Shown here one piece after another: positions 3,081 to 19,937 of a DNA stretch of 32,000 bases (position 1 is its first letter; each line of letters opens with the position of its first letter). The stretch is taken from positions 120,001-152,000 of the forward strand of contig CAVRAI010000003.1 of the NCBI GenBank assembly GCA_963718915.1, in the 5' to 3' direction. The DNA is from an uncultured Chloroflexia bacterium (lineage in GTDB: Bacteria > Chloroflexota > Ktedonobacteria > Ktedonobacterales > JADMIN01). The notes beneath the pieces were generated by a model. The model saw only the letters and a program-made list of their open reading frames with translations, searched no databases and was not told the DNA's origin. Position numbers and translations under genes: made by a program.

Positions 3081-6000
3081 CTATCCACCGATCTCGGCGA
3101 GCGCCCGCTCGACATGTTCGGCATAGAAGCGCTCGCCCAGACGGTTGAGGATGGCCAGCGCCGCCGTGAAGCGTTCGCGCGCACGTTCTGGCTCACCCTG
3201 CGCCAGATGCAACTGGCCGTAGACGTAGAGAGCTTTAGCTTCGGCATAGGGATAAGGCATCGAATGAGCGAGGGAGACGGCCTCATCAAGGTATTTCTCA
3301 GCGTCCTGCCAGCGTTCTTGCTTCATGGCCAGGAGCGTCTTCACGCGCAGGTGATCGGGAGCATAGCTTCTCCAGTGCATCTGCCGGTCTCCCTGCTCGA
3401 GGTAGGCAGCCGCTCCCTGGTCATCACCCGATGCAAGCGCTGCCCAAGCAAGCAACGTGACGGGGTGAATCATGCCGGTTGGAACGAGGTGGTAGTCGCG
3501 TAGCGGCGCAAGGCGCTCGGAAGCCCGGTGCGGAGCGTTGTCCAACAGGTCGCGCTCGGCTAGCGGAAGTTCAACTAAAGCAAGGTGCTCGGCACTCCGA
3601 TGGCCGAAATTAGTCAAGATCTCCTGTACGATCGCCACATCCTCGGACTGCCCCTGGGCAAGTACTAATTCTGCGAGCGTGCTTACAACGAGCACTCTAG
3701 CGCTCAACGCTGACGTCTCGTTTGGCTGACAGAGCGGGAGTGCTTGCTCCAGGAGGCGTTGGGCTTCTGTCCACTCTCCCCGCTGGTACGCATAATACGC
3801 TAGACCGTTGAGCGCGATCGCAACATCCTCTGGAACGCCGACGCGCTCTGCGTACTCGAGCGCTAACCGGAATAGGCGTTGTGCATCCTCGTCTATGCCA
3901 TACTTGCCATAGATAATTGCGCTATACATCGCCGCGTCGTACGAGAGCGACAAGTCTCTCGTAGACTCGGCCAGGCGTACAGCTTCCTTGTAGAGGGCAA
4001 TCGTCTCATCGATCCGAGGCTCACTTCCGTATGCCAGACTTGTCGCATAAGTGAGAGAAGCTTGCGCTTCCAGCTTAACATCGTCTGCTGTCTTGGCCTC
4101 AAGCCATGCTTGTCGCGCAAGATCCTGCGCGGCAACCTCGTCTGCACGTGTGGCATAACCAAAGTTAGCACCCATCACATTAAACACATTGTAGGAATCG
4201 GACACCGCAAGGTGCACAGCACTGGCGGTTGCTGGAGAGACAACATCCGCGATGTCAAAGTGATCGGCAGCGCCTGTTACGACTGCTCCTGCTGGCAAGC
4301 TCTCCTTCCTCAGCGTGGCGAGTAGCCCCGCCAACACCCGATAGCGTTCTATGCCGTGCTGAGGAATGCGTTGCTGATTATCTAGAGTGATCAACAAGGC
4401 CGTTGCTCGCGCTACCCCATCGAGATCGTTTACTGCACGGAACAGGTCGAGCGTCTGATCACCCAGCTGGCGCGCGTCATCCAAGCGGGCGTGACGCCGC
4501 ATCAGGGTGCCTAGCTTCAGGAGAGCCTCGGCCTCACGTACACGATCATCCAACTCATGAGCCAGTCGGGCCACCGTGCGATACTGGCGCTCCGCCTCGG
4601 CGTGCGCGTAGACCGCCTCAGCCTGGGCGCCTGCCTGTAGCGCATACGGCAGGGCGTGGTCGGGCGCGCCCCCTTGGGCAAAATGCCAGGCGAGTTCCGC
4701 CGCCTGGCGACTCGCTCCCGGCAGTTCCTCTAATGCCTCGGCGATATGTCGGTGCGTCGCGGCGACACGCGCGGAACCCAGATCGGCCACAATGACCTCG
4801 TGGATCAGATCATGAGCGAATACATAAGAACCGCCCGCGCCTTCCAACAGGAATTTCCCTGCGCCGCGTCATGCAGCCCATCGAGCGCGTCGGCCTCTGA
4901 GAGAGAGAACGCCTTGCCAACGGCCAACAGCACATTAGGCGCGCTACGCCTGCCTGCCACTGCCGCGATACCTAGCAGGCTCTGAGCATGGGGTGGCAAA
5001 ATCGCTATCCGCTGGCGAATGCTATCGGTGACATCGTCCGGCACGTCCGCAAGTTCTGGCTCACCATCAGCGACCAGCCGGTCGGCGTCAAGTCGCTGCG
5101 CATAGCTCACCAGAAACAGTGGCATCCCGCCCGCGCGCTGGAGCACACGCTCTCTGGCTCCGACCAGCGCCTGATCGCCTGGTTCCTCGATGCCTAGTAG
5201 GTTATTGAGCAGCACGCTGGCATCTTCAGGCTGCAATGGCTCAAGTTCGTGGCGGATAGCCAGCGATTCGCGCATCAGTTCATGCTGCAGCACGCTGAGC
5301 GGGTGTTGCGGCTGCACTTCAGTGCTGCGATACGCGCCGAAGATGCGTAGTGGCGCTTCATCGGTGGCGGCGCGAGCAAGTGTAGCCACCAGATCAAGGG
5401 CGTCGGCGCCCGCCCACTGAAGATCGTCGAGGATGAGCAGCGCGCCTGTTGGGCCAGACAGGTTGGCGAGGTAACGGCCCACCGCCGCGAACATGAGCGG
5501 CGCTCCTGCGGTGGCGGAAGATTCCACGCGGCGCGGGACGAGCGTTGTCTCCGCCAGTTCAGGGAGCAGGCGCACCAGCCAGGAACAGCCTTCCAGGTCG
5601 GTGCGTAGCTGCGATGGATATTGCCCGTGGATGCGTCGCTCTAACGCCGTGAGTATCGGCGCATACGGCTCCTGCCCACTGCTCCGGTGGCAACCACCTT
5701 CCAATACAGCCCAGCCACCGACGCGCGCCATCTCGGCGGCCTCACGCAGCAGCCGTGTCTTTCCGATACCTGGCTCGCCCGAGAGGAACAGCACGAGGTG
5801 GCCCTCGCCCGCCAGGTGACGTTCGAGCAAGGCGAGTTCAATCGCGCGACCGATGAGCGGCGCGCCGGATGTGGGGACGGCAGCCGCGACGCTGGCAGGA
5901 GAGGATATCCGTTGGCGGGCGGCGGACTCGAACATGGTGCGGTCAGCATCGGTCAGATGGAGGGCATCAGCCAGGAGCGCGACCGTCTCTCTGCGTGGGG

Positions 6001-6141
6001 CGCGCCGCTCGCCGCGTTCGAGCGCGCCAATCCCCTTGGCGCTCAACCCCGCCCGCTCGGCCAACTCTTCCTGGTCAGCCCCGCGGCCCGTCGGGAGCGT
6101 CGCAGCAGATCGCCAAACGTGTGGATGGATGCCGTCGCCAT
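3081..6141 (-). pseudogene. XRE-type HTH / AAA+ (STAND-like) ATPase / TPR-repeat transcriptional regulator, reading frame broken twice
   Basis: One continuous domain architecture is spread over three minus-strand frames. (i) ATG 6141, with GGAAGGA upstream, gives MATASIHTFGDLLRRSRRAAGLT, the first half of an XRE HTH. (ii) The frame of ORF 4805..6301 continues from ~6075 with QEELAERAGLSAKGIGALERGERRAP and Walker A GEPGIGKT. (iii) ORF 3081..4847 continues with (GKFLL)EGAGGSYVFAHDLIHEV plus TPR-like repeats. The shifts map to ~6070-6078 and ~4856-4868. Confidence 0.8.
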
Positions 6142-6407
6142 CGGAGGATTTCCTTCCGCGTGCAGGCAATACTAAACCTTTTCCAGGATCTGACACCGCA
6201 ACACAGATGACATCATAGCACGTAATTCGGGCCAATGAATAATCGTGTTGTGAGCAAAGTCGCCGAATTGTGGGAGCGATTGTGGGAGGATGTGGGAGCA
6301 TTGTGGGCGTTGTGTGTCGAGAAATCGCCGCGCGCGGGACACACTTGAGACATCACATCGCGGTGAGGCGCTGGAGCAGGGTCTACAGCCATCCCGCCCG
6401 ATGACTC

Positions 6408-6833
6408 ATGAAAGGAGCGGCAGCTACTATGTTGACCACGAATCAGACACAGAATCGGCCCCGGTCGCCACTCTCCCGCTTCGCGCGGGTATTCGCGCTG
6501 GTTGCTCTAGCGCTGACGCTGGCCGTCGCCATTGAAACCACCATTGCGCTCACCAGGCGAAGCGCGCCCAACCACACCTCCGTCGCGGCGGCGCAACAGC
6601 AGTATCGTGACCCCTATGCTGGCGGGTACCGCACGGCCAGCGGACAACTTTTGTTGCATGAGACGCAAATGAATGAGTCCACTATCGCCTGCGTGCGCAT
6701 GCCGCGCGGGCAGTCTCACTGGCTCGACACGATGGAGCCGTACGTGCTGGCTGATGAGAACGTTCGAGTCATCGGCGGGCAGTATGCGGCGCGGCTGATC
6801 GCGATGGAGTCGGGCACAGCGCTGGCGTGCTAA
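6408..6833 (+). CDS. Hypothetical membrane-anchored protein
   Basis: The likely start is the in-frame ATG 6429, preceded by AAAGGAG (6411-6417). N-terminal hydrophobic anchor FARVFALVALALTLAVAIETTIAL. No recognisable family. Confidence 0.6.
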   Translation: MKGAAATMLTTNQTQNRPRSPLSRFARVFALVALALTLAVAIETTIALTRRSAPNHTSVAAAQQQYRDPYAGGYRTASGQLLLHETQMNESTIACVRMPRGQSHWLDTMEPYVLADENVRVIGGQYAARLIAMESGTALAC

Positions 6834-6880
6834 GCATAGTCAGCGAACACGAGAAAGCACAAGAAAGGTGGATAAATACG

Positions 6881-7087
6881 ATGCCAGCGACTATACGGAA
6901 TCCGCGCAGACTCGCAGCCACTGCCATCTTCGCACTGCTGCTTATGGTTACGCTCGCAGCCTACGGACGACTAAGCGCACCCGTGACCGCAAAGGTAGGG
7001 TCGGCCAGGATCGCGCTGCCAGTTATTGTTTGCCCCTCGCAACCGGCAGAAGACAACCTTCCTCCGATTCCGCGTCACCCTCACTAG
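6881..7087 (+). CDS. Small hypothetical membrane or secreted protein (68 aa)
   Basis: An internal ATG of ORF 6827..7087 is preceded by AGAAAGGTGG. The product is MPATIRNPRRLAATAIFALLLMVTLAAYG, a positively charged N-region followed by a hydrophobic helix. Confidence 0.45.
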   Translation: MPATIRNPRRLAATAIFALLLMVTLAAYGRLSAPVTAKVGSARIALPVIVCPSQPAEDNLPPIPRHPH

Positions 7088-7270
7088 CCCCCAGCTTACG
7101 CGCTGCCTCCGACGAAGCGGCGCATGGGGCAGTAGGTGTAACACAAATTAGCGATAGGGGCGCCATTGACAGGGAGCGCCCTGACTATGATGAGGCGACT
7201 GGATCGGCGCCCCCCGCGATGAGCAATCGCATGCGCCAACCCAGCCGCCTCCTCGTTTTCCCATTATTCG

Positions 7271-7327
7271 CTAGAAGCTGGGGTAGATGCCACGGATGAC
7301 GCCGAGGCCGCCGAGAAAGTAGACCTT
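7271..7327 (-). pseudogene. Relic 3' end (last 19 codons plus stop) of a second copy of the major capsid protein gene
   Basis: 7269-7328 matches 9849-9908 at 56/60 nt. It translates to KKVYFLGGLGVIRGIYPSF*, identical over the last 18 residues to the C-terminus of the 506-aa capsid protein. An in-frame TGA lies immediately upstream of the fragment. Confidence 0.75.
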
Positions 7328-7521: not shown

Positions 7522-8589
7522 TTAAGGGTTTTGGAGAGTCCCTCGAAATATTCGAGAATTCAACCCGATTCCTCGCACAGAGATTCCGGTAATGTTTCCT
7601 TGCTGCAACGAAGTGCTATCCAGTAGAACACTCTCCGGCGCGGTATTAGATGTACCAATGAGGTAATCCATCAGAGCCTGTCCTGCTTCCATATGTTCGA
7701 CAGTAGCTCCTGCTAACAGGATCCCTTTATCTTTTGAAGAATAGAATTCCAAAATTTCTGCATAGTAATTGTCTCCAACAGTATATACGCTCACTTGTCC
7801 ACCTGAGGTTAGATCTTTAACGGATGGGACTACGGACGGGTCTCCTTTTCCACTTCCGTCTAGATATGCCGTTTCAACAAGGATTTTATTGAGGCCTTGT
7901 ACTTGCGATGGGTCTGCATTTTCGTTGTTTGCAACATTATCTTGCCCAACAAGAATAATCCTGTATTCGTATGCCTTCGTTACTTGGTTAAGTCGCTTGA
8001 CAGCATACTCCCAAAACGATTTGCCATTAATTATCGTCGTACCATCACCATTAGGATTTGATCCAGGCAACTTAATTGCGGCAAGAAAATGAAGCTCGAA
8101 TGCATAGCCACTTTCAGATGCGTATACGCCCCATGGCTCTTTTATGATCGGATGCGTTGGATCTGTCCACTTATGATCATATGCTCCATATCCGGGAATG
8201 TATTCCAACATATCAAACTCTGTATCTTTGATTGCAGCGTCCACTCTTTGTTTGACCTTAAGTTGCTCTTGCCGTTGTTGTGGAGTTAATGCTGATGGAT
8301 TAGCAATCAAAAGCGCACCGACATCATGGTTTACTAGAAGTGTCTCCCATGTCGTCTGCGGCGCTTTTGTTGGGTTCGCAGTTGCTGCTGGTCTCGTAGG
8401 TCGAAGCGTTGCAGATCCGCCTTGTTGAGCGCACGCACTTACTGCTCCTCCAGCAGTCCCGAGTATTCCGACCGTCAGAAGGAACCGGGATACCCACATC
8501 AGTATTCGGTGTGCAACTTTCCCAGAGTCTTTCTGGCCGCCCTCGAGGTGGCCTGGTCGGGCACTGGATATCCGCTTGATCAACAACAT
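7522..8589 (-). CDS. Hypothetical lipoprotein or secreted protein encoded by a low-GC (foreign-looking) gene
   Basis: ORF 7522..8610. ATG 8589 has the best SD (GAAAGGA, 9-nt spacing); the alternative is ATG 8499 (MWVSRFLLTVGILGTAGGAVSAC, a lipobox-like A-V-S-A-C). Sampled lines in the gene body hold 21/60 and 24/60 G+C, against 36-46/60 in flanking genes. Confidence 0.7.
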   Translation of the reverse strand: MLLIKRISSARPGHLEGGQKDSGKVAHRILMWVSRFLLTVGILGTAGGAVSACAQQGGSATLRPTRPAATANPTKAPQTTWETLLVNHDVGALLIANPSALTPQQRQEQLKVKQRVDAAIKDTEFDMLEYIPGYGAYDHKWTDPTHPIIKEPWGVYASESGYAFELHFLAAIKLPGSNPNGDGTTIINGKSFWEYAVKRLNQVTKAYEYRIILVGQDNVANNENADPSQVQGLNKILVETAYLDGSGKGDPSVVPSVKDLTSGGQVSVYTVGDNYYAEILEFYSSKDKGILLAGATVEHMEAGQALMDYLIGTSNTAPESVLLDSTSLQQGNITGISVRGIGLNSRIFRGTLQNP

Positions 8590-8811
8590 ACGCAAGCATC
8601 CTTTCAGCATAGCCTTGGCACTAGTTTACTATATCGCCCGCATGATTGGCTAGTCGCTGTCAGATGTGCTCGTATTCGTCCGACGTGTAACCCAATGTAG
8701 CCTCTTCCTCACCTGTGGTGCGGACAGTTCGTTCGGAGTCAGTATGGGTAAATATCGCGGGACGATGAAGCTTTGGCAGGCACTTTCCACGCTTAAGAGG
8801 GAACTGGCTTA

Positions 8812-9671
8812 GAACCTGTTAAAGACTCAAGGTCAAGTGGATGAATTGATGCAACATCAAGCAGGCAAAGGCCAAAAAATGCAGGCCCGCCAAGGTCTGG
8901 GCCAAGCGCTCGTAGTCGCGCGCCAGGCGGCGGAAGCGCGCCGTCCACGCGAAGCTGCGCTCGACGACCCAGCGGCGGGGCAAGAGGACAAAGCCGCGTT
9001 TGGCCTCAGGCAGCTTGACGACCGCCAACTGAATGCCGTGCGCGGCCGCAGCCGCGGCGGGCGCATCGCCGGTGTAGCCCTGATCGACATAGGCCAGTTC
9101 CACCGTCTCGCCCGTCACCGCCTGCACCGCTGCCGCCGACTCCTCCACCTGGGCGCGATCCTGTTCGTTGGCGGGCGTCACCACCAGCGCCAACAGCTCG
9201 CCCAGCGTGTCCACCGCGGCATGGACTTTGGAGCCGTTGCGCCGTTTGTGCCCGTCGTAGCCCGCCCGCGCCCCGCTCTCGGCGGTCGATTGGATCGTCC
9301 GGCTGTCCAGAATGACGGCGCTGGGAGACGCGGATCGTCCTGCCGTCCGGCGCAGCAACACGCGCAGGTCCTGCACGATCTGCTCAAAGCAGCCTGCGTC
9401 CAGCCAGCGGCGCATCTGCTGATAGACCACTGGCCACGGCGGCAAATCATGGGGCAGCATGCGCCAGTGCGCCCCGGTTTTCACGATGTAACGCACACCA
9501 TTGAAGACCTCGCGCAGGTTGTGACGACGTTGGCTGGCGGTTTCCGACAACAACGTCAAATAGGGGGCGACGAACGTCCATTCGTCGTCGCTCACATCAG
9601 ATGGGTAGGGGGTGCGTATGGTTGACATACCCTACCATATCACTACTCAACGTCAAGTCTTTAACAGGCTC
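8812..9671 (-). mobile_element. IS5-family (IS427-group-like) insertion sequence, 860 bp, with a TA target duplication
   Basis: Terminal inverted repeats are GAACCTGTTAAAGACT (8812-8827) and the reverse complement of 9656-9671, GAGCCTGTTAAAGACT (15/16 match). TA flanks both ends (8810-8811 and 9672-9673). A single transposase ORF fills the element. Confidence 0.85.
8819..9628 (-). CDS. IS5-family DDE transposase (269 aa)
   Basis: N-terminal [15 protein letters not shown]...[23 protein letters not shown] is typical of the DUF4096 plus DDE_Tnp_1 transposases of the IS5 family. The ORF spans nearly the whole IS, and its stop lies inside the left inverted repeat. Confidence 0.9.
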
Positions 9672-9674
9672 TAG

Positions 9675-9707
9675 GAGGGAACTGGCTTAGGAGGGAACTG
9701 ACTCGAG
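9675..9707. repeat. 16-bp tandem repeat GAGGGAACTGGCTTAG; a further copy at 8797-8811 is separated from these by the IS
   Basis: Copies at 9675-9690 (perfect) and 9691-9707 (degenerate: GAGGGAACTGACTCGAG). 8797-8811 plus G9674 makes a third perfect copy once the IS and one TA are removed. Confidence 0.8.
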
Positions 9708-9800
9708 TTGCATCGACTTACCAGCACTAAATACGAGGCAGAGTACCGATATATGGCGAGAGATTACAAGAATCGACGTGCAGTAGCGAGGAAAACGAGT

Positions 9801-9829
9801 CTGCCCCTCCGCATTTCAGGGAGGGGCAG
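9801..9829 (-). terminator. Stem-loop terminator downstream of the capsid gene
   Basis: CTGCCCCTCC (9801-9810) pairs with GGAGGGGCAG (9820-9829), a 10-bp GC-rich stem with a 9-nt loop. On the minus-strand RNA it is followed by ACUCGUUUUCC. It lies 22 nt after the capsid stop. Confidence 0.6.
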
Positions 9830-9850
9830 ATTTTCCGGTTGGTCGGCGCG

Positions 9851-11371
9851 CTAGAAGCTGGGGTAGATGCCGCGAATGACGCCGAGGCCGCCGAGGAAGT
9901 AGACTTTCACGGTCTCGTCGATGTAGTCGGCGAAGCGGAAGTTGCTGTCGGTGACGGCGAAATCCACGCCCCAGTATTCCTGGTTCGTCTCGATCTCGAT
10001 GGCCGCGGAGACCTCCGGCACAGGGAAAGGCACCGAGACCGGCAGGAAGACCATACATCCCTGCGGGCAGTAGCGATCCAGGATGATCGGGATCTCGCGC
10101 CCCGTGCTCTTGTTCAGATAGCGGGTGACGCGGTACTGCGCCGTGAGCTGCCCCTGATCGGCGCTGTCGCCCGCCTGGACGACGTAGCGCAACTGGCCGG
10201 AGCCCACCACCAGATTGGTCAGCCGGACGTTATCCAGCGGATTCATGATGATGTAGTCGGGGTCACCCGCCGCCTGGAGATACATCCCCGCCAGCAGGTT
10301 ATCGATATCGGCCAGCGCCAGCTTGCCTGTCGCGTCGGCGGGCTGCGCCACCTGCGCGCCAAGCGTCGCGCCGTTCGTCAGGCTGGTGTTGTTGAGCGCC
10401 TGCGCGATGATGCCGTCCCACATCAGCGGCGAGCCAGAGCCATCCACGAACGTCTTGGCGGTGTTCGCCGCCACCGTCGAGAGGGCGGTACCGGAGGTCG
10501 CGGGCGGCGCGGAGACCGTCAGCGGCAGAATGGCGGGATTCACCTCGCCCGATGGCATCACTGTCGCCCCGTCGGCCAGTGTGACCGTCGCGCCAATCGC
10601 GGGCTGTTGCGCGTTCGCGCCGGAGATGCCCGCCTGGAGCCACATCGCGCTATCAGCGGGCAGCGAACCGCCGGAGCCGATGTAGATGTTGTACTGGGTC
10701 GCGTTCGGCACGGTGAAGACGGTAATCGTCAGCGTCGAGGTACTGCCGGTGGTGACGATCTTCGTCACGGGTGAGGCGGTTGTCTCGCCCTGGGCGTTCT
10801 TCGCCGTCACCTTCACCCAGTACGTGCCCGCCGCGACGGTACCTCCACTGGCCGATGTTGCGACTACCGGCGCGGGCGGCGCCATCAGATACGTGGACGC
10901 GCCGAGCAGCCAGCGCTCCTCGGTCATCTTCAACTGATAGAGTAGCTCCGCGATGCGCCGCGCCCGCACGTCACTTTCGAGCGCGCGGCCACGCCACTGC
11001 GCCTGGAAGCTGACGGCGTTCATCAGGCCGATGGTCTGCATCGTATTTTGTAGCGACGCCACCGCGTACGTCACCTGGCTTGGCGTGCCGCCATCCGCCA
11101 GCACGCCCCAGTTGCGCGAGGTGTCGAAGCTGGTGATCGCCTTCCAGTGGACGACGTCAGTTCCGTTGCCGCGCCGCCGTGGCAGCATATTCACCAGCGG
11201 CGTCACCACCGGCACGATCACCTTCGCGGGCGTCTCCAGCTCATAGCCCACTAGCCCGCTGGCCATCGTAATCGCGCGGGTCGCGTCGCCCATCGCCTCG
11301 CGCACCAGCGCCACCGTCTCATCACCTATTGTTGCCCCTGCCGTCCCCGGCAGATAGACCGCGCTTGCCAT
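9851..11371 (-). CDS. Putative HK97-fold phage-type major capsid protein (506 aa) with an inserted FN3/Ig-like domain
   Basis: SD AGGAAAGGA lies upstream of ATG 11371. The gene sits directly after a prohead protease and a small helical protein, in canonical head-module order. Its size and the N-terminal TPLVNMLPRRRGNGTDVVHWK and AELLYQLKMTEERWLLGAS segments resemble capsid proteins as I recall them. Residues ~165-235 (GTVAAGTYWVKVTAKNAQGETTASPVTKIVTTGSTSTLTITVFTVPNATQYNIYIG) look like an FN3/Ig insertion. The fold assignment is inferred, not computed. Confidence 0.7.
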   Translation of the reverse strand: MASAVYLPGTAGATIGDETVALVREAMGDATRAITMASGLVGYELETPAKVIVPVVTPLVNMLPRRRGNGTDVVHWKAITSFDTSRNWGVLADGGTPSQVTYAVASLQNTMQTIGLMNAVSFQAQWRGRALESDVRARRIAELLYQLKMTEERWLLGASTYLMAPPAPVVATSASGGTVAAGTYWVKVTAKNAQGETTASPVTKIVTTGSTSTLTITVFTVPNATQYNIYIGSGGSLPADSAMWLQAGISGANAQQPAIGATVTLADGATVMPSGEVNPAILPLTVSAPPATSGTALSTVAANTAKTFVDGSGSPLMWDGIIAQALNNTSLTNGATLGAQVAQPADATGKLALADIDNLLAGMYLQAAGDPDYIIMNPLDNVRLTNLVVGSGQLRYVVQAGDSADQGQLTAQYRVTRYLNKSTGREIPIILDRYCPQGCMVFLPVSVPFPVPEVSAAIEIETNQEYWGVDFAVTDSNFRFADYIDETVKVYFLGGLGVIRGIYPSF

Positions 11372-11397
11372 GTTGTTATTGTCCTTTCCTTAGTAGG

Positions 11398-11463
11398 CTG
11401 GCGGTTAAAACCGCGCCTAAGGGCCTCGCTCCGCTCCGCCACGAAGTCCGCCTGCGCGAGACT
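11398..11463 (+). repeat. Hairpin-rich intergenic repeat, family 1, copy 1 (inside the capsid operon)
   Basis: GCTGGCGGTTAAAACCGCGCCTAAGGGCCTCGCTCCGCTCCGCCACGAAGTCCGCCTGCGCGAGACT aligns along its length with 12958-13025. Confidence 0.75.
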
Positions 11464-11486
11464 CTTCCGACTACAAACGTCATTGC

Positions 11487-11759
11487 TCATTCGCCCCGCT
11501 GTTGCAGGCGGATCAGTTCGGCGGCGATGGCCACCTGTACCTGCGGATCGAAGACTTCCCCCGCGAGTGATTCGAGCGCGCGATATTTCTCCCTGGCGGT
11601 GGATGCGCCCATCTGCCCGCGCGCCGTCAGGGCGGACGATTTGTCTACGGGCCGCGCCGCTGGGCCGCCCGCGAGCGGCTGGCTCTCCAGCGCCATCACC
11701 CTTCGGTTCAGCCCGCCGACCTCGCCCGCCATCTGTTGCAACGACGCCTCTATCGTCAT
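11487..11759 (-). CDS. Small alpha-helical protein (90 aa), putative scaffolding or head-assembly protein
   Basis: ATG 11759 lies 3 nt after the protease stop; an alternative GTG at 11774 overlaps the protease end. Third-position G/C is roughly 80%. The sequence is helical and coiled-coil-like (IEASLQQMAGEVGGLNRRVMALES...AIAAELIRLQQRGE). It occupies the scaffold position between protease and capsid genes. Confidence 0.5.
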   Translation of the reverse strand: MTIEASLQQMAGEVGGLNRRVMALESQPLAGGPAARPVDKSSALTARGQMGASTAREKYRALESLAGEVFDPQVQVAIAAELIRLQQRGE

Positions 11760-11761
11760 CG

Positions 11762-12598
11762 CTAGCGCCCGCACGCCCGCATCCAGCGCAACAATTTGAA
11801 TGCGTTATCCGCGAGTCCCGCGGCCAGCGCCCGCGCCAGCGGCTGATCGTCGGCCTGTGGCCCGGCCTCGCGCTCGATGGGCAAGCGCACATCGGCCAGC
11901 AGCGCCCGCGCAGCCACACATACTGTGCAGCCGCAGCCCGTCAGCACTGCCTGCGCCGCGCCATGCAGTCGCGCGCGATTCGCCTGCTCCGGCGTTCTCG
12001 CATCCACCACGGCTGACTCGTCCAGTGCGCCCGGCGCGTCCGACTCATCCACCTCGGTGGCTGGCTCGTCGAGCAGATCGAGCAGCGCGATATCCGGCGT
12101 GGCGTCGCGCACGAACGCGACCCCCAGCGCGTCAGGATTGCTGGGGTTATCCACCAGACTCAGCTCCACCAGGTCATAGCGGGTCGCGACATTGAGCGAG
12201 CGTTGCTCGCCCGCCACGCGACGTCGCTGCCGCTGCCAGACCACTCCACTGGCGCCGATGCTTGCCCCACGCAGGGTGCCGTCCAGCACCTTCTCCCAGG
12301 TGTCTTGCGCGCCGCGCGAGATACGAATGCGGACGTAGATACGCCGCGTCTCGTCGTCGCAACGCACCGCCACGCGCGAGCCGACCGCCTGCCGTCCGTG
12401 CATCTCGCGCACGTTGCCAATCCAGCGGGTGAACGCATCCTTGCTGGCGCCGTAGTCGAAGATCGTGCCGTGGCTATCCACCGTCTCGCTGGTGGCGCAC
12501 AGCTCGATTTCGCGACGTGGGGCATCCACACGCACAATCGGCGCAAACCCGATCCGCGCCGTGCCAGTCATAGCTGGCGTCTCTGACGTATCTGGCAT
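11762..12598 (-). CDS. HK97-family phage prohead (maturation) serine protease, Peptidase S78/U35-like, with an acidic, Cys-containing C-terminal extension
   Basis: Diagnostic blocks are FAPIVRVDAPRREIELCATSETVDSHGTIF (catalytic His context), LRGASIGASG (Ser context) and YDLVELSLVDNPSNPDA. The start is uncertain: ATG 12598 has SD GAGGT at 8-nt spacing, with alternatives at 12571 and 12640. The 359-aa ORF extension to 12841 runs into the promoter and is rejected. Confidence 0.85.
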   Translation of the reverse strand: MPDTSETPAMTGTARIGFAPIVRVDAPRREIELCATSETVDSHGTIFDYGASKDAFTRWIGNVREMHGRQAVGSRVAVRCDDETRRIYVRIRISRGAQDTWEKVLDGTLRGASIGASGVVWQRQRRRVAGEQRSLNVATRYDLVELSLVDNPSNPDALGVAFVRDATPDIALLDLLDEPATEVDESDAPGALDESAVVDARTPEQANRARLHGAAQAVLTGCGCTVCVAARALLADVRLPIEREAGPQADDQPLARALAAGLADNAFKLLRWMRACGR

Positions 12599-12621
12599 AT
12601 CTGACGACCTCAGATACGTCA
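12584..12621 (-). promoter_or_regulatory. 11-bp perfect inverted repeat forming a hairpin over the protease SD and start codon
   Basis: The minus-strand RNA reads UGACGUAUCUG-AGGUCGUCAGAUAUGC-CAGAUACGUCA. The SD-like GAGGU straddles the 5' arm and loop, and AUG (12598) lies in the 16-nt loop. Confidence 0.5.
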
Positions 12622-12728
12622 CCCGGCCGCTCGCCGTCATCCCTCTCCGGCGCTGGCAATATTCTTCCGCGCCCCCATAGAGTCTGCCCTCCCTCCACAC
12701 AACCTCAGTTCGTCTACAAATAGGCAAA

Positions 12729-12772
12729 ACGCCGCTCCCATCCCGAGATCTGCCATCGGGAGGAAGCGGCGT
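12729..12772 (-). terminator. Intrinsic-terminator-like hairpin in the 5' leader of the capsid operon (possible attenuator or antitermination target)
   Basis: The minus-strand RNA reads ACGCCGCUUCCUCCCGA-UGGCAGAUC-UCGGGAUGGGAGCGGCGU, followed by UUUGCCUAUUUGU. It lies ~50-95 nt downstream of the predicted -10 and ~130 nt upstream of the protease start. Confidence 0.55.
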
Positions 12773-12829
12773 CCTGTCCAGACTGACCGCATACGTTGCC
12801 GCACTACACGAACAACTGGCGACGCCACA

Positions 12830-12858
12830 ATCATAGAACATATGTTCTTATTTTGCAA
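12830..12858 (-). promoter_or_regulatory. Sigma70-like promoter (-35 TTGCAA, 17-nt spacer, -10 TATGAT) with an embedded LexA/Cheo-type SOS box AGAACATATGTTCT (12835-12848)
   Basis: The minus strand reads TTGCAAaataAGAACATATGTTCTATGAT. The 14-bp perfect palindrome matches the GAAC-N4-GTTC core of the B. subtilis-type LexA operator (consensus CGAACATATGTTCG) and fills the spacer. Confidence 0.65.
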
Positions 12859-12957
12859 GGGGGCGGGTACAGATGGCGCGATTTCTGGGGGAGATGATGG
12901 GCAAATCTGAGCAGACATGAGGGCCAGTGGGGGTATGCGGGCGTATTCGCGCATGTG

Positions 12958-13025
12958 GCTGGCGGCTGAAGCCGCGCCTACGGGCCTCCGCTCCGCTGCG
13001 GCCGCAAAGCCCGCCTGCGCGGGCT
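12958..13025 (+). repeat. Hairpin-rich intergenic repeat, family 1, copy 2
   Basis: GCTGGCGGCTGAAGCCGCGCCTACGGGCCTCCGCTCCGCTGCGGCCGCAAAGCCCGCCTGCGCGGGCT. It contains the internal hairpin AGCCCGC-CTGC-GCGGGCT. Confidence 0.8.
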
Positions 13026-13133
13026 AGCAGACGCAGATGCAAACGCGCCTAATAGATTACCTGAATAACACGTTAAACACCATAAGGCTGCGGCTATTCC
13101 TGGGCTGTCGGCCTTTTCGTCGTTCGTGGTCCC

Positions 13134-13190
13134 AGCCCGCGCAGGCGGGCTTTGCGAGCGTAGCCCATAGGCGCGGCTTCAGCCGCCAGC
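13134..13190 (-). repeat. Hairpin-rich intergenic repeat, family 1, copy 3 (inverted relative to copy 2)
   Basis: The reverse complement is GCTGGCGGCTGAAGCCGCGCCTATGGGCTACGCTCGCAAAGCCCGCCTGCGCGGGCT. Both ends are identical to copy 2 and the middle is ~11 nt shorter. Confidence 0.8.
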
Positions 13191-13409
13191 GCCTCTGCGG
13201 CGCGCTCCGAATCAGACAGGCGCCGCCATTTGCCTTCACCCTGGTATATACATGTCCGCAGAGCAGAAAGTAGCGTAATGTCTGCTCGTGCGGTACACTG
13301 TACTTTTGGAATCAGGCTTTTGGATTGCGGCTTGCCGGATGGTGGTGAGCGACGAAGGCATTGAGCAAGCGCGAGCAGGCGAGACAACGCCTCGGGAGCT
13401 TCTACAAAC

Positions 13410-15480
13410 ATGACGGCAGGCACAGATAATAACGGAGGCCAGCCCTCCACCGACAACGTAACGACGTCAGATACAGATGCCGCTGTGACGACAGACGCCG
13501 CTGTGGCGACGGAGGCGGCGCCCGATCCCATCCAGGCGTTCGCGGCGCTGGGGCTTGGCGAGGATGCCCTGCGGGCGGTCCGCGAGCTGGGGTTTGGCGA
13601 GCCGACACCTATCCAGCAGCAGACCATCGGCGAGATCCTGGCGGGCCGCGATGTGATCGGCCAGGCGCCCACCGGTACCGGCAAGACCGCCGCCTTTGGC
13701 CTGCCTATCGTCGAGCGGCTGGATGTCAACCAGCTCGCCCCGCAGGCGCTCATCATCGTGCCGACGCGCGAGCTGTGCATTCAGGTCGCCGAGGCGATGC
13801 ACACCCTGGGCAAGTTCCGCGAGTTGGTCTCGCTGCCGATCTATGGCGGCCAGCCCTACGAGCGCCAGTTCCGCGCGCTCGCCCGCGGCGTGCAGGTCGT
13901 CGTCGGCACGCCCGGACGCCTGCTGGATCACCTCAACCGCAAAACGCTCGACCTCAGCACAGTGAGGATGGTCGTGCTGGATGAGGCCGACGAGATGCTC
14001 GATATGGGCTTCATCGAAGATATCGAGAACATCCTCGCCGCGCTACCTGAGCAGCATCAGAGCGCGCTCTTCTCGGCGACGATTCCGCCACGCATCACGC
14101 GGCTGGCCGAGCAGTATCTGCACAGCCCGCTGCGGGTGAGTGTCGCGGCGCGCGAGGCGGTGGCCCCACGGGTGCGCCAGGTCTACTATGAGGCGCCATA
14201 CCCCGCGAAAGCGGAGGTGCTCTCGCGCATCCTCGATCTGGAGACGCCAGAGTCCGCGATTGTCTTTGTCAACACGCGCCGCGAAGCCGACATCATCTCG
14301 GAACAGTTGAACGGCCTGGGCTATCTGGCGCAGGCGATCCACGGTGAGATTACCCAGGCGCAGCGCGAGCGGGCGCTCGAACGCTTCCGCGCCGGGCGGA
14401 CGCAGGTGCTGGTGGCGACGGATGTGGCGGCGCGCGGGCTGGATATCCCCGACGTCAGCCACATCATCAACTACGATCTGCCACTCGACGCCGAATCCTA
14501 CGTCCACCGTATTGGACGCACCGGGCGCGCTGGCCGTAGCGGCGAGGCAATCACGCTGGTGACGCCACGCGAGCGGCGACAACTCCGCCTGATCGAGCAG
14601 GGTATCCATCGCAACCTGGAGCGGCTGCGGCTGCCAACCCCGGCGGATGTGGCGGCGCGGCGACGCATGGCGTTCCGCGAGGAGATCCTCTCGATTCTGG
14701 ATGGCGGCCAGCTCGATCCGTATCTGGCATTGGTCGAAGACCTGGTGGGATCGCGCCAGCCAGCCGATCTGGCGGCGGCGGCCTTCAAGATGGCGGCGCA
14801 GGCGATTCAGTCGCGGCGTCCGGGCCAGCCGATGAACTGGATGGAGATGCCACCACCACCAGCCGCAGCCCGAACCGTTCGAGCAGCGGGAGGAGGAGCG
14901 CCCGGGCCGGAGAGATCGCGGTGAGCGTGCGGATCGTGCAGAGCGCGGTGAGTATGGCGACCGGGGAGAACGTCCCCGCGAGACCCGCGAGCAACGCGCG
15001 CGCGCACGCAGCTTCCTGCGCGATACCGAGCATGGCGCGCCGGGCATGGCGCGGCTCTTCATCCGCGTGGGCCGTCAGGACGGCGTTCGCCCGACCGATA
15101 TCGTCGGCGCGATTGCCAACGAGGCGCATATCCCCGGCGACAGCATCGGCGACATCGACATCTACGACGGCTTCTCGTTCGTCGAGGTGCCTGAGGAAGC
15201 CGCCGAACGCGTGCGCAATGCGCTCAACGCGACGACAATTCGCGGACGCATGCCACGCGCCACGCTGGCCCGACCGGCGGGCGACTGGATCGAGGATGAG
15301 GATAGCCGCGACGAGCGCCGTCCCCCGCGCCCATCACGCGCCAGCGAGGACGAGCGCCGACCACTGCGCGCGCCGTTTGGGGGTCGCCGCGCCGCCACTG
15401 GCGGATTCCGTGGCGGGCGTCCCGGCGAGGGCGGGCGCGGTCGTGGCAATGATCGGCCCGCCCCACGCAAACGACGCTAA
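13410..15480 (+). pseudogene. deaD: DEAD-box ATP-dependent RNA helicase (DeaD/CsdA type with C-terminal DbpA RNA-binding domain), frame interrupted once
   Basis: ORF 13410..14924 carries the Q motif (FGEPTPIQ), AxTGTGKT, DEAD, SAT and HRIGRTGRAG. The +1 frame is open from 14836 (..QPQPEPFEQREEERPGRRDRGERADRAERGEYGDRGERPRE..) and runs into ORF 15046..15480 (RLFIRVGRQDGVRPTDIVGAIANEAHIPGDSIGDIDIYDGFSFVEV, a DbpA-type domain). The shift lies between 14836 and 14921, probably at CCACCACCACCAG. Confidence 0.85.
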
Positions 15481-15487
15481 ACGGCGG

Positions 15488-15940
15488 CTAGAACCGGCGG
15501 CGCTGGCGACGGCGCACACCCGCGACTGACATCGGCGAGAGCGGCCTGCCAATCGGGTCGATGAAGAGCGAGCACGACCCCGCCGACGTCGGGAGCGTCC
15601 CCTCCAGCACCTCGACGTTGTAGGTGAGCGTATCGCCCGCCAGCTGCGGGTTACGCAGAACCACCGTGGCGTCGTCCGGGGTGGTGTCGTCGGTCTCCAG
15701 GAATGTGATGACCGCGTTTGGCGGATCCTCGGCAAAGTTGTTCTCGCCCGTGCCCCACTCATTGATGAATTTCTGGGTGCTGACGTGGCCTACGACGCGA
15801 TCTGGACGGTCGGCGAAGAAGAGCGTCGCGCTCCCCGCCCCCTGCAGCGTGATCGTGTCACCGCCGCTGGTCATTCCGCTCCCTACCTGGACAAACATGG
15901 CCTCGATCTCGGCGGGTTGGGCATTCGTGTCTTCGCTCAC
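15488..15940 (-). CDS. Conserved hypothetical protein (150 aa) with an arginine-rich C-terminal tail
   Basis: GTG 15940 is preceded by SD GAGGAAAGGA. Coding-type G/C3 is present. The C-terminus is LFIDPIGRPLSPMSVAGVRRRQRRRF. The family seems familiar to me from high-GC Gram-positives but is uncharacterised. Confidence 0.7.
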   Translation of the reverse strand: MSEDTNAQPAEIEAMFVQVGSGMTSGGDTITLQGAGSATLFFADRPDRVVGHVSTQKFINEWGTGENNFAEDPPNAVITFLETDDTTPDDATVVLRNPQLAGDTLTYNVEVLEGTLPTSAGSCSLFIDPIGRPLSPMSVAGVRRRQRRRF

Positions 15941-16137
15941 CGCGTTGTTCCTTTCCTCTGGTCATACGGGCGCACACGGCCCGACACATAACCTGCTGAC
16001 CATAGCTTAGGCATACTCTACGCGCATGACCCTGCGACAAAGTGGAGATGACCGGGTTAGTCTTTTACCTGACCGACGAGATAGCCAGACCCACAATGCA
16101 TTCGCCTCCCGGCTGCGGCTATGATTCATGGTAGCCA

Positions 16138-16170
16138 GGCATATATCCGGCATATATCCGGCATATATCC
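16138..16170. repeat. Perfect tandem repeat, 3 x 11 bp (GGCATATATCC)
   Basis: Read directly: units at 16138-16148, 16149-16159 and 16160-16170, ending 37 nt upstream of ATG 16207. Confidence 0.95.
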
Positions 16171-16206
16171 GACGCGGGTCCGCAGCACATGGAGGGGTTG
16201 GGCGCG

Positions 16207-17826
16207 ATGGAGTGGGATGACGACGAGTTCACCAGAGAGCCGCTCGATCCCGCGAAGCTGGCGCCACACAGTGACAGACACAGCGATGAAAGCAGCCCAG
16301 TGGACGAGCCGCTGCCCGACGACGAATTTACCAGGGAGCCGCTCGATCCCACGAAATCCGCGGGCGACAGAACGAAGCGATCCGCGCGTCGTGTGCTGTT
16401 GACCATCGGCGGCTGTGCGCTGCTGGCGGTCACGCTGCTTGCCAGCACCGGAACGGCGGGAAGTCTCTGGCGGCAGGCGCGGTTCGCCTGGCTCACACAT
16501 ACGGCGCCGACGCTGACACGCACGACACTGACGCCCCAGGCGCCGGGCCAGCGCACCTTGAGTGGCTGGAAGCAACAGGCGGTATTCTCACTCCCCAATC
16601 CCGATCTCCGCTGGGCCTCGCCCACACCGAACGACCCGAACACCTGGTATAGCTGTAGCGCGGCGACGACCGACGCGAAAGGCAACGAGGAAGACGGCCC
16701 ACTGATCTTCTGGTACACTCACGACGCTGGACAACACTGGCTGAGCGTCCGCGTGCCAGGGACAACAGCCACCTACTGCTCCGTGCTCGTCGCGCCGTAT
16801 GATCCGCAGCGACTGAGCCTGGTGAGCCAGCGCATGGGCCAGATGAGCCAACAAGCGATTGGCTGCTCCCAATTCACCGCCTATCTGAGCGCCGATGGTG
16901 GCGCGCACTGGCAAGTGGTTCCCTCGCTGCCCGAAGCGCCCATCCAGTCGAACCGATTCAATTTCTGCAGCCTCTCACTCTCGCCCGCGAGGCATCATCT
17001 GTACCTTTTCTACAATTACGCGATCTGTTCTGGCCCGCCTGGATGCAACACCCAGACGGCAGGCAGTTCGCTGGCGCGCAGCGATGACGGTGGCGAGAGC
17101 TGGAAGCGCCTGGACGAGAACCAGCCGCCGGAGAGCGATGGATATCCGCTACTGCTCGACGATGGCGAGACGCTGCTGCTCAACGTATTTCACTTTGATC
17201 CGCCTGCCAATGGCAATATCGAACACGGGGCAACACAGATCTGGATATCGCGTGACGCCGGGGATAGCTGGCAGCCATGGGGCAACATCCAGGGCCTGGC
17301 GGCGGGCCAGGTGGTGATGGACCCAGCAAATCGCCTACTAAAGCCTTCACTGGCCCGTCCACTGTATCTGCTCAGTGGAGCCGGAATACCATCGCGGCTC
17401 TATCGCATCCAGATTGCGCAGGTGACCGACATGCATCACTGGGCGCCGCTGCCGCCGTTGCCCATCGCGGGCGCCAGCCCTGAGCATCTCGGCATCACAA
17501 CGGTACTTACCGAGACGGCGTCGGGCAAGTTGCTCGTCTTCGGCCTCGGCCCAGACGACCACGTTCCTGCTGAGAATTCGCCTCAGACGTCCGACTCAAC
17601 GCCCACGCAACAGTGGCTCTGGGAATGGGATCCGCAGGCCAGCCGATGGACACTGCTCACCCCGGCGCTAGACGCGCCCTGGCCACAGTGCAGCGATCAC
17701 TGTTGGCCAGCCATGCTGACTCCGGCGCGAGGCGCGGGCGAGACAGGCGCGTACCTGACGGTCTGGCACGGCGCCGACAATGGGCAGGTCTCGCTGTTCG
17801 GGATTTCCCTGCCCGGTCTGGAATAA
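16207..17826 (+). CDS. Membrane-anchored BNR/Asp-box repeat (sialidase/Ycf48-like beta-propeller) protein
   Basis: ATG 16207 is preceded by GGAGGGG; the upstream ATG 16189 is an alternative. The acidic N-terminus carries two DDEFTREPLDP repeats. TM helix VLLTIGGCALLAVTLLASTG. Four Asp-box motifs (S/T-x-D-x-G-x-x-W): THDAGQHW, SADGGAHW, SDDGGESW, SRDAGDSW. Confidence 0.8.
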   Translation: MEWDDDEFTREPLDPAKLAPHSDRHSDESSPVDEPLPDDEFTREPLDPTKSAGDRTKRSARRVLLTIGGCALLAVTLLASTGTAGSLWRQARFAWLTHTAPTLTRTTLTPQAPGQRTLSGWKQQAVFSLPNPDLRWASPTPNDPNTWYSCSAATTDAKGNEEDGPLIFWYTHDAGQHWLSVRVPGTTATYCSVLVAPYDPQRLSLVSQRMGQMSQQAIGCSQFTAYLSADGGAHWQVVPSLPEAPIQSNRFNFCSLSLSPARHHLYLFYNYAICSGPPGCNTQTAGSSLARSDDGGESWKRLDENQPPESDGYPLLLDDGETLLLNVFHFDPPANGNIEHGATQIWISRDAGDSWQPWGNIQGLAAGQVVMDPANRLLKPSLARPLYLLSGAGIPSRLYRIQIAQVTDMHHWAPLPPLPIAGASPEHLGITTVLTETASGKLLVFGLGPDDHVPAENSPQTSDSTPTQQWLWEWDPQASRWTLLTPALDAPWPQCSDHCWPAMLTPARGAGETGAYLTVWHGADNGQVSLFGISLPGLE

Positions 17827-17845
17827 GCGTGTGATGTGGCGTCCG

Positions 17846-18766
17846 TTATTTCTGGCCAATCACGACATAAAACGGGGTGTAGCAGCGGCTCCGGCGCGCA
17901 TCGAACTCTTTGCGCATGCCGTCCAGCGTCCGGTCGAACTGCTCCTGGGTGGTGAGGCCCGCGCCGACGAGCAGGCCGGCGTAGCCTTTGCAGACGCCGA
18001 CGAAATCAGTGGCGACCATCATCCCCAGCCGCTCGCCCCACGCGCCAGTGCGCACATTCACGACGGACGCCGCGACATTCCGCAGCCCCGCCGCCCGCAT
18101 GAAATCGGCGACCCGGCTGCCATTCATCAAATCCACCTGACGGCGCGCCGACATCTGGGCAATCCAGGTCATCATCAGGCTGACGTTCGGGCCGCCATCG
18201 TGCAGACCGGTCGTCTCAACCGACTCCGCCCAGCCACCCGGCCGAGTTACCCGCGCCAGTTCGCTCACTGCCCGCGGCCAGCGGTCGCCGGGGATCGCCG
18301 TAAAGAGCAGCCGCAAATGCGTGAAGTCGAACATCCCATCGTCGAACGGGAGTCCTTCAAGGACGTTGCCTGGCACGAACGTATAATTCGCCGGGCGCAC
18401 GTCGACGCCATGTCCGGCCTGCTCATCCGCTGGTGGCGGGTTGACATCCACGCCACAGACGTTGGCGTGCGGGAACATCTGCGCCATCTCCATCGCCCAG
18501 CGTCCTGTTCCAGTGCCAACATCGAGGATGCTGCCAGGGTGTTGCAATGGCACGGCATAGAGTCCCCTGAGCGCGTACCGCAGCATGTAGTGCTGAAAGT
18601 CGAGCCGGTTGATTTCCTCCATGTCGCGTGGCAGGGCATAGGGCAGCCCCATGGTCCGCATGCGACCACCCATCAGAGCGACCGGTGTTCCTTCCTGAAG
18701 GGCCATCGCCTCGATCAGCCCTGCCTCCGCGGATTGTCCCTTGCGAAACCACCCAAACCATCGCAT
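17846..18766 (-). CDS. Class I SAM-dependent methyltransferase
   Basis: SD AAGGAGAG lies 6 nt before ATG 18766. SAM-binding motif I is ILDVGTGTGRWAMEMAQMFPHANVCGVDVN. Confidence 0.85.
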   Translation of the reverse strand: MRWFGWFRKGQSAEAGLIEAMALQEGTPVALMGGRMRTMGLPYALPRDMEEINRLDFQHYMLRYALRGLYAVPLQHPGSILDVGTGTGRWAMEMAQMFPHANVCGVDVNPPPADEQAGHGVDVRPANYTFVPGNVLEGLPFDDGMFDFTHLRLLFTAIPGDRWPRAVSELARVTRPGGWAESVETTGLHDGGPNVSLMMTWIAQMSARRQVDLMNGSRVADFMRAAGLRNVAASVVNVRTGAWGERLGMMVATDFVGVCKGYAGLLVGAGLTTQEQFDRTLDGMRKEFDARRSRCYTPFYVVIGQK

Positions 18767-18865
18767 GCCGGTCTCTCCTTATACTCTTCGTCAACTCGTT
18801 ACGATGCGCGATGCGCGACTCATGACAACACGCTGCGCTACTGATCGCCTGACGCTGGCGTCAGG

Positions 18866-19072
18866 TCAGACCAGATAGAACGGGATATTGGGAAAGAACT
18901 GCTCCGGGGTATAGCCCGGCGGCAGCTCGAGAACTACGAGCACCATACCCACCCGCGTTGGCGGCGCAATCGCCACACGCCCGCCGACGCGCTCCACGTC
19001 GGGTTTGCGCGCCTGCACGTTCGCGACGTTCTGGGGGCTGGCGATCAACGCCTGATACTGGATTAGCTTCAT
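18866..19072 (-). CDS. Small hypothetical protein (68 aa)
   Basis: The ORF has reasonable codon G/C3 and only a weak SD. No recognisable family. Confidence 0.4.
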   Translation of the reverse strand: MKLIQYQALIASPQNVANVQARKPDVERVGGRVAIAPPTRVGMVLVVLELPPGYTPEQFFPNIPFYLV

Positions 19073-19387
19073 CCGTGGTCACGTCCTGTTTTCCTATCGT
19101 TTTCCTCTCACCAGGCGGGGAATGTGGCTGTAGCTCACTGTGTCCACCTTGACGCCATACACCGCGACCATCCAGTCGATGGAAAGCAAGACGAAGCGGG
19201 TCTCCACTGTGGATTATCAAGCGGATGCAGCGCCCGCGCAATCAGAACTAATGCTGACTCGCCCGTCATGTATGACACTGCCTGCTGGTTAATCATGAAA
19301 AGCATACACCCGGCGTCAAGAGACTAGCGCTCCTCGACTGCCCAGGTATAATGAGGTCGGCGCATACCTATTACCGCGAGGAGCGCT

Positions 19388-19918: not shown

Positions 19919-19937
19919 CCGTGCGATATGTCGCGAG

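Follow-up and report, generated by a model that had tools for sequence, protein, structure and literature searches.

A protease-scaffold and major capsid protein locus of Ktedonobacterales as the candidate head operon of a dispersed, probably LexA-controlled particle system

HK97-fold major capsid proteins (MCPs) can form shells without a portal. In the Rhodobacter capsulatus gene transfer agent (GTA; RcGTA), the genes of terminase, portal, protease and MCP lie in one cluster, and PBSX of Bacillus is one contiguous region of roughly 28 kb under its own repressor. In lambda (gpC/Nu3) and P2 (gpO), a protease and a C-terminal scaffold are encoded in one frame, and some lineages express the C-terminal part separately. 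Capsid-forming phage-inducible chromosomal islands (cf-PICIs) carry MCP, protease, adaptor, portal, small terminase subunit (TerS) and large terminase subunit (TerL) genes and no tail (PMC10690885). The locus described here lies in a 32,000-nucleotide (nt) stretch of an uncultured Ktedonobacterales bacterium (contig CAVRAI010000003.1, positions 120,001 to 152,000), the whole of which is called the window. It consists of a prohead protease-scaffold gene and an MCP gene, referred to as the duo. With belief slightly outweighing doubt, we read it from its sequence and that of its relatives as the operon for the head of a GTA/PBSX-like particle system that is dispersed, inherited vertically and probably under SOS/LexA control. 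An earlier note, made from the letters of the window alone, had proposed a self-contained head-only capsid operon, encapsulin-like in one version and the remnant of a decayed prophage in the other. Related loci are given by number (L008 and so on), and gene clusters by c-numbers.

Capsid genes, dispersed partners and shared promoters

The 506-amino-acid (aa) protein had a single Pfam match, to SU10_MCP (1.2e-8, above cutoff), and matched phrog_13692 over its full length (4e-56). An AlphaFold model built from a 70-sequence alignment had a predicted local distance difference test score (pLDDT) of 80.9 and a predicted template modelling score (pTM) of 0.76. Foldseek analysis of the model gave the SU10 capsid 7z48 as the best match (E 5e-13, prob 1.0); HK97 1ohg was matched at E 1e-7 with a target-normalized template modelling score (TM-target) of 0.71. 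The top PDB matches were phage capsids (SU10, Pa223, SPO1, D3 and HK97; TM-target up to 0.73), and the RcGTA capsid 6tb9 (E 9e-7) and encapsulins ranked below many phage capsids. The HK97 fold that the earlier note had assigned to this protein, and for which it had proposed structure prediction, was borne out by Pfam, PHROG, AlphaFold and Foldseek alike. According to the predicted structure, the protein is a phage-type (SU10-like) HK97-fold MCP, and it belongs to a phage capsid type, not to an encapsulin family. The model also contained a beta-rich insertion at about residues 165-290 inside the HK97 fold. This insertion (about 10500-10880) is beta-sandwich-like with an FN3/PKD-like sequence pattern, GTYWVKVTAKNAQGET, and is strongly conserved family-wide; it had no Pfam domain match, and one family member is labelled 'PKD repeat protein' by JGI.

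The open reading frame (ORF) upstream of the MCP gene, previously called a prohead protease, matched the head maturation protease phrog_9427 (3.6e-30) and NF045541 (1.3e-13), with weak matches below the cutoffs to TIGR01543 (9e-4) and Pfam S78 (0.022). A PDB sequence search with the protease-scaffold returned nothing meaningful. The motifs REMH, GASIGA and ELSLVD.PSNP were invariant across 38 loci. We take them to hold the S78 His/Ser/acidic catalytic residues, an assignment read from the motifs and not from comparison with a solved protease. Since these S78-consistent motifs are invariant, the enzymatic function of the protease appears to be retained.

In L008, L009 and L013, the protease and the following 90-aa segment form one ORF of 408-451 aa (longest ORFs as called, with 5' ends that are probably over-extended), and in L001 and L003 the scaffold segment also lies inside a single protease ORF. 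In more distant relatives the fusion reaches 500-800 aa. Protease and scaffold are separated by a GCGCxxC motif, which is conserved, and by an insert of 100-400 aa, which varies strongly; the 90-aa segment had no family match of its own. In the window, a 1-nt deletion (Table 1) makes the protease frame continue for about 15 codons out of frame to the TAG at 11764-11762, and the original frame resumes as the 90-aa ORF from ATG 11759. The 'small helical protein' that had been listed as a separate gene is, by this alignment, the C-terminus of the protease-scaffold fusion. Of the three intact co-directional genes claimed before, the minus-strand ORFs were thus found in their places, but the module is two genes with a frame break in the first.

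The frame break may be an assembly error, because two neighbouring genes are split as well, as had been noticed from the letters. DeaD (13410-15529) is split into 504 + 202 aa, compared with about 630-775 aa in the majority of complete cluster members, and an HTH-AAA-TPR gene (3081-6301) into 498 + 588 aa, compared with a single 1059-aa ORF in L008. Two findings speak against this: at 11759 an ATG stands where all orthologues have GCC/GCG, and a split version occurs also in L006 (277 + 104 aa). The three frame breaks within about 10 kb suggest either an indel-prone (long-read) assembly or real decay.

MCP relatives numbered 214; among the 120 listed, the identity was 54-95% and every organism name given by the source was Ktedonobacterales or Chloroflexota. 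A locus scan with one genome per species returned 48 loci, and protease-scaffold and MCP were present in nearly all of them (tblastn and ORF clustering). A portal gene was found within 10 kb in only six distinct loci, and a TerL gene within 10 kb in only three. In the first configuration, the compact one, the order was protease-MCP-c25-c4 (adaptor-like)-c5-portal-TerS-like-TerL (L028, L031 and L042, and the viral or metagenome contigs L056 and L064). In the second, protease-MCP was followed by the neck-like genes c4-c5-c7, without portal or terminase, and the third was the bare duo, as in the window. Distant relatives (MCP identity 32-56%) were in canonical phage order (L058, L083, L086 and L103).

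The compact elements span about 10-12 kb, with two small genes after the MCP gene, a helix-turn-helix (HTH) TerS-like gene, and c74 after TerL. Unusually, their head genes precede portal and terminase. Their content is cf-PICI-like, as none of the five elements had a recognisable tail, integrase or replication gene. Clusters c26, c57 and c61, upstream of some loci, were tried as divergent portal or terminase genes and rejected. Of these, c26 and c61 were treated as host genes, presumably encoding an acyl-CoA synthetase and a PAP2 phosphatase, which they resemble by sequence reading. Two further clusters, c9 (YggT) and c11 (EEP-family protein), are both probably host genes.

The duo was located at the same chromosomal site, with DeaD adjoining the protease, in the window, L008, L009, L013 and L052, and thus in at least five Ktedonobacterales species; L012 shares the downstream flank. 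For syntenic orthologues (Nei-Gojobori), the MCP dN/dS was 0.04-0.10 at a dS of 0.20-0.76, and the dN/dS (omega) of DeaD in the same pairs was 0.06-0.17. The dS values of MCP and DeaD matched in the same pairs (0.27 vs 0.29; 0.56 vs 0.69). The dN/dS was 0.10-0.15 for the protease domain and 0.24-0.34 for the whole fusion. Because the MCP dN/dS is low and its dS equals that of DeaD, the duo is inherited vertically and has co-diverged with the chromosome under strong purifying selection, and neutral debris is excluded for this clade. The decayed-prophage version of the earlier note, for which it had named synteny and dN/dS as a check, is contradicted by these values and by the site conserved in several species.

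Portal homologues formed at least 231 clusters (90% identity, E <= 1e-10), of which the 120 listed were 70-84% identical, the query aside, and TerL homologues formed 644. Both were at least as common as the MCP, and again every source-given organism name was Ktedonobacterales or Chloroflexota. In the closed genome CP126532.1, which has the compact element L028 at 3.37 Mb (3.367-3.388 Mb), protease-MCP locus L035 maps to 2.85 Mb; a second portal gene, standing by itself between host genes, maps to 2.57 Mb, and a second TerL gene, likewise by itself, to 3.52 Mb. On one 1.57-Mb contig, an 'orphan' MCP locus and a solitary portal gene were 88 kb apart. A metagenome scan covered portals of 65-80% identity on contigs giving at least 3 kb on a side; for most of these, the sequence covered contained no homologue of MCP, protease, TerL or neck genes. 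One solitary portal gene lay beside ffh in three independent assemblies, and the median pairwise dN/dS of solitary portals was 0.18.

In L116, a solitary small-ORF-TerS-like-TerL operon had host genes on both sides. The exact MCP of the window was found on a single 910,535-bp NCBI and ENA contig, and TerL P0419 (77% identity with the solitary L116 TerL) on a 910,535-bp NCBI and ENA contig as well; from the identical size and sources, the two genes appear to share one contig. The Ktedonobacterales TerL matched the PBSX-family terminase model TIGR01547 weakly (1e-13, below cutoff). Near the solitary portal gene of L059, an aconitase gene (15770-20020, 1416 aa) contains an intein (Pfam Intein_splicing).

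The promoter proposed before at 12830-12858 was found at that site, and related loci had the same architecture. As a consensus match alone, TTGCAA-17-TATGAT was not significant. The GAAC-N4-GTTC motif, which is used by Dehalococcoides too, occurs next to its -10 as the perfect box GAACATATGTTC. This box was unique within the 32 kb, and in L008, L009, L012, L013, L052, L035 and L050 its half-sites were invariant and the N4 was variable. Gram-positive bacteria have GAAC-N4-GTTC as their LexA motif (PMC3323433). In L036 (5328-8686), immediately downstream of the MCP gene, a GAACGTAAGTTC box in an AT-rich promoter is followed by an imuB-like gene (IMS_HHH) and a dnaE2-like gene (PHP + DNA_pol3_alpha); this pair is a classic SOS mutagenesis cassette and serves as an internal control for the box. 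Because the box is the Gram-positive LexA motif and precedes the imuB-like/dnaE2 pair in L036, it is plausibly LexA's.

An SOS-type promoter was defined as a box with at most one mismatch directly abutting TAnnnT. It was present upstream of 18 of the 40 protease-MCP loci, always with a TTGnnn -35, upstream of solitary portals in 9 of the 26 with upstream sequence, and in both solitary TerL operons examined; none was present among compact or phage-type loci. A rough base-frequency estimate gave chance expectations of about 0.5 and about 0.2 loci, beside the 18/40 and 9/26 observed. The promoters were CTTGCCATACCC-GAACATCAGTTC-TACACT at portal L061, GAAAATGTGTTC-TATAGT at TerL L062 and GAACATTTGTTC-TAAAAT at TerL L116, and portal L059 had a box with one mismatch and a leader hairpin. 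Four 10-bp-phased TGTCCG direct repeats were located just upstream of a degenerate box and -10 in L067, L101 and L113-L115, 100-400 nt upstream of solitary portals; these repeats, none of which was seen at MCP loci, point to a second regulator for part of the portal loci.

The leader hairpin between promoter and protease start had a conserved stem with one compensatory pair (RNAalifold, 7 loci). A stricter pattern found it in 7/8 perfect-box loci, the eighth (L013) having the stem with a weak T-run. A looser pattern found it in 10/40 protease loci; nine of these have the SOS-type promoter, the exception being L028 (Type I). A similar leader hairpin occurred in portal L059 and in TerS-TerL L116. 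In L116, a 79-89-aa ORF comes first after the promoter; next is a hairpin with a T-tract, and TerS-TerL comes last. This ORF is conserved (L062 9281-9550; L116 6068-6307) with the motif ...RALxLxLWxAxHQ...GQxWxTWKG...SIxGxIxT and no family match, and is a candidate regulator or antiterminator.

Proposed mechanism and alternative explanations

In the dispersed system that we favour, the particle genes would be scattered as small, vertically inherited operons: protease-MCP, portal alone, small ORF-TerS-TerL, and sometimes neck-like genes. LexA on the GAAC-N4-GTTC box next to the -10 would block each promoter; upon DNA damage, LexA would be removed and transcription would start at all loci. The GC-rich leader hairpin and T-tract would then attenuate transcription unless read through, and the 79-89-aa protein of the terminase locus might enable this read-through. 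The scaffold C-terminus would drive MCP shell assembly on a portal supplied from another locus, after which the protease would remove the scaffold and TerS/TerL would package DNA. We infer, from the genes and their control regions, that the dispersed genes may work together, that particles may form and that these may hold packaged content as in GTAs or PBSX. LexA binding, SOS induction, attenuation and antitermination are likewise predictions read from the sequence.

Several findings weigh against this reading. More than half of the loci are without the box, and some portals carry the four phased TGTCCG repeats instead of it. Only two or three genomes were shown to contain MCP, portal and TerL together, and for the contig of the window itself a portal was not seen. 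Tail, lysis and head-completion genes were not identified for the dispersed set; neck-like c4/c5/c7 occur at some loci only, and none in the window. The protease-scaffold gene of the window itself is broken, L037, L019, L041 and L042 have one frame break each, and the MCP gene of L052 (10001-11523) has at least three frame changes, its pieces being only 68-78% identical. Overall, frame breaks were found in 5 of about 40 copies, besides the protease-scaffold gene of the window. L052 is syntenic with the window, with a DeaD 91% identical, and its MCP gene is likely a pseudogene or an error-laden long-read region. Finally, the MCPs of the compact elements, 73-84% identical to the chromosomal ones, were nested within the clade in a neighbour-joining tree, L028 being the sister of L035 from the same genome. 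Given this nesting, there may have been no single ancient domestication but an exchange with mobile elements that still continues.

The first alternative is a satellite or interference element. Here the duo and the solitary portal and TerL would be kept to hijack or poison infecting or induced relatives (compact elements or full phages), the benefit being defence or parasitism. Head-and-packaging elements without a recognisable tail are present within the order and also in the closed genome CP126532.1 itself, their MCPs are similar to and nested among the chromosomal ones, and SOS timing would coincide with prophage induction. However, the capsid module had no match among the PADLOC defence models, no integrase, replication or pac/cos features were found at the capsid locus, and no helper phage was identified. 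Simple assembly poisoning, moreover, needs no strong conservation of solitary TerL and portal. We consider this explanation unlikely.

An autonomous head-only compartment, in which protease-scaffold and MCP would respond to DNA damage by building closed shells with no need of portal or terminase, is rated still lower. The duo has its own promoter and terminator, strong purifying selection acts on it, HK97-fold MCPs are able to form portal-less shells, and no other phage gene was found in the 32 kb. The shell, on the other hand, is of the phage (SU10) type, outside the encapsulin families, no cargo gene is present at the capsid locus, and the same genomes conserve portal and TerL homologues, which share the promoter type. 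The self-contained, encapsulin-like module of the earlier note does not agree with this SU10-type shell or with the widespread solitary portal and TerL genes.

An ordinary prophage that was recently scattered by insertion sequence (IS) rearrangement and is decaying, with no host-level function and with conservation owed to recent phage ancestry, is equally improbable: the IS directly downstream in the window, the frame breaks in several copies including that of the window, and the graded series from complete through neck-containing to duo-only loci fit it, but the orthologous position is common to at least five species, the MCP dS equals that of the host neighbour with an omega of 0.04-0.10, below DeaD, solitary portals are at conserved host sites, and each piece has a matching promoter of its own. 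What was found comes near to a case that the earlier note had held against its own proposal, a co-regulated rest of the gene set elsewhere in the genome. Since the pieces are conserved throughout the order, however, this is no ordinary split prophage.

The dispersed, SOS/LexA-controlled reading could be taken one step further. Tentatively, and with more doubt than belief, the Ktedonobacterales may possess an independently domesticated GTA-like system, apparently the first in Chloroflexota, with single- and two-gene operons, a LexA box at each -10, a shared leader terminator and small-protein read-through. If the loci work together, they would represent a new domesticated phage-particle lineage, in a soil order that is large but little studied. 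The end-state of domestication would be unusual, with structural genes kept as separate operons united only by shared cis-regulation. To our knowledge, scattering of structural genes in bacteria is only partial, in RcGTA, and it is better known from wasp polydnaviruses. The box at 12836-12847 and the leader hairpin offer concrete cis-elements. A practical warning also follows: when a capsid is called an 'orphan' from its local surroundings, a scattered gene set can be overlooked.

Features of the window and neighbouring genes

The coordinates of the features are listed in Table 1. A protease start at ATG 12841 (359-aa ORF) was rejected, since this ATG lies inside the putative operator, upstream of the -10.

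Table 1. Features of the capsid locus and its neighbours in the window
Feature	Position	Strand	Remarks
Protease ORF as called	11762-12841	minus	open reading frame list
Small ORF as called	11487-11774	minus	open reading frame list
506-aa ORF, MCP	9851-11371	minus	open reading frame list
Prohead protease (S78-like) and linker/Cys-motif part of the fusion	11762-12640	minus	start probably ATG 12640 (or 12597)
Scaffold-like C-terminal segment, 90 aa from ATG 11759	11487-11759	minus	fused to protease in most relatives
1-nt deletion	between 11804 and 11803	minus	DNA alignment with L008, L009, L012 and L013
Promoter	12830-12858	minus	-35 TTGCAA (12858-12853), 17-nt spacer, -10 TATGAT (12835-12830); consensus scan
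LexA-type (Cheo) box GAACATATGTTC, perfect	12836-12847		fills the spacer end and abuts the -10
Leader hairpin, about 20 bp, GACGCCGCTTCCTCCCG...CGGGATGGGAGCGGCGT then TTTTGCCTATTTGT	12716-12773	minus	between promoter and protease start; terminator/attenuator-like
3' hairpin and short T-run (TTTT)	9793-9830	minus	21 nt past the MCP stop; plausible intrinsic terminator
IS5-type transposase	8819-9628		inverted repeats at 8810-8838 and 9645-9673
Low-GC (about 46%) ORF, 362 aa	7522-8610		without family match
DEAD-box helicase DeaD	13410-14924		adjoins the protease side; spacer between full of palindromes

The terminator that had been placed near 9801-9829 is a real hairpin with TTTT; the fold (about 9830-9800) had an energy of -29.3 kcal/mol and a z of -4.07, and it was not called by a simple terminator scan. 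The neighbours (IS, low-GC ORF, helicase and repeat-filled spacer) were as described before. Homologues of three genes of the window (6868-7299, 6408-6833 and 4805-6301) come right after the MCP gene in L008, which identifies the IS and the low-GC ORF as insertions in the window lineage. The IS5-family element (within 7522-9706) is flanked by TARGAGGGAACTGGCTTAG repeats.

The absence of portal, terminase and neck genes from the 32 kb, also claimed earlier, agreed with family-specific tblastn and with Pfam analysis of the large ORFs, which found no such homologues (not every ORF was scanned). At the DNA level, the region 9700-13000 had 0 matches to 50,697 phage records, and at the protein level the matches to cultured phages (Alicyclobacillus MMB025, THSA-485A and two Brevundimonas phages) reached only 27-38% identity within the aligned parts.

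GC-rich palindromes resembling repetitive extragenic palindromes (REP-like) were located upstream of the promoter at 12957-13025 and 13134-13190, with arms of 28-35 nt that are 83-96% complementary; a further copy was located at 11396-11458, between the scaffold fragment and the MCP gene. Similar palindromic units occur in four tandem copies upstream of TerL in L062. Rfam analysis of 11300-13450 gave matches confined to the REP-like palindromes, namely CRISPR-DR28 (38.6 and 34.1 bits), with MIR1437 and isrG below threshold. A CRISPR array or known RNA in this region was rejected, the CRISPR-DR28 matches being inverted single copies.

Comparison with described particle systems

At title and abstract level, literature searches gave no description of this capsid system and none of a GTA in Chloroflexota. 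Like RcGTA-type GTAs, the Ktedonobacterales loci comprise phage-derived head and packaging genes that are vertically inherited under purifying selection, occupy more than one locus and are apparently host-regulated, and the RcGTA capsid 6tb9 is matched by the MCP model. Unlike in RcGTA, terminase, portal, protease and MCP are separate one- or two-gene loci, and control appears, from the promoter sequences, to be direct LexA repression and not CtrA/GafA. There is no sequence relationship to RcGTA beyond the fold.

Like encapsulins (families 1-4), the locus has an HK97-fold shell gene that lies in a cellular chromosome and has no portal or terminase gene next to it. It differs from them in the SU10_MCP-type shell with phage capsids as the best structural matches, in the adjoining prohead protease-scaffold, in the missing cargo gene, and in the portal and TerL genes located elsewhere.

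The cf-PICIs and Streptomyces satellite phages are resembled by the compact relatives L028, L031, L056 and L064, which have MCP, protease, adaptor-like, portal, TerS-like and TerL genes and no recognisable tail. In contrast to cf-PICIs, the window holds protease-scaffold and MCP only, at a chromosomal position that is fixed across species; no integrase or replication genes were detected at its locus, and no integrase in the compact relatives.

As in lambda gpC/Nu3 and P2 gpO, the Ktedonobacterales protease domain and C-terminal scaffold are in one reading frame, but the Ktedonobacterales fusion additionally has the GCGCxxC motif and the variable 100-400-aa insert. With PBSX, the system shares the expected SOS inducibility through a Gram-positive-type GAAC-N4-GTTC box and a TerL that weakly matches PBSX-family TIGR01547. 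Unlike those of PBSX, the Ktedonobacterales genes are dispersed and have the box in their own promoters.

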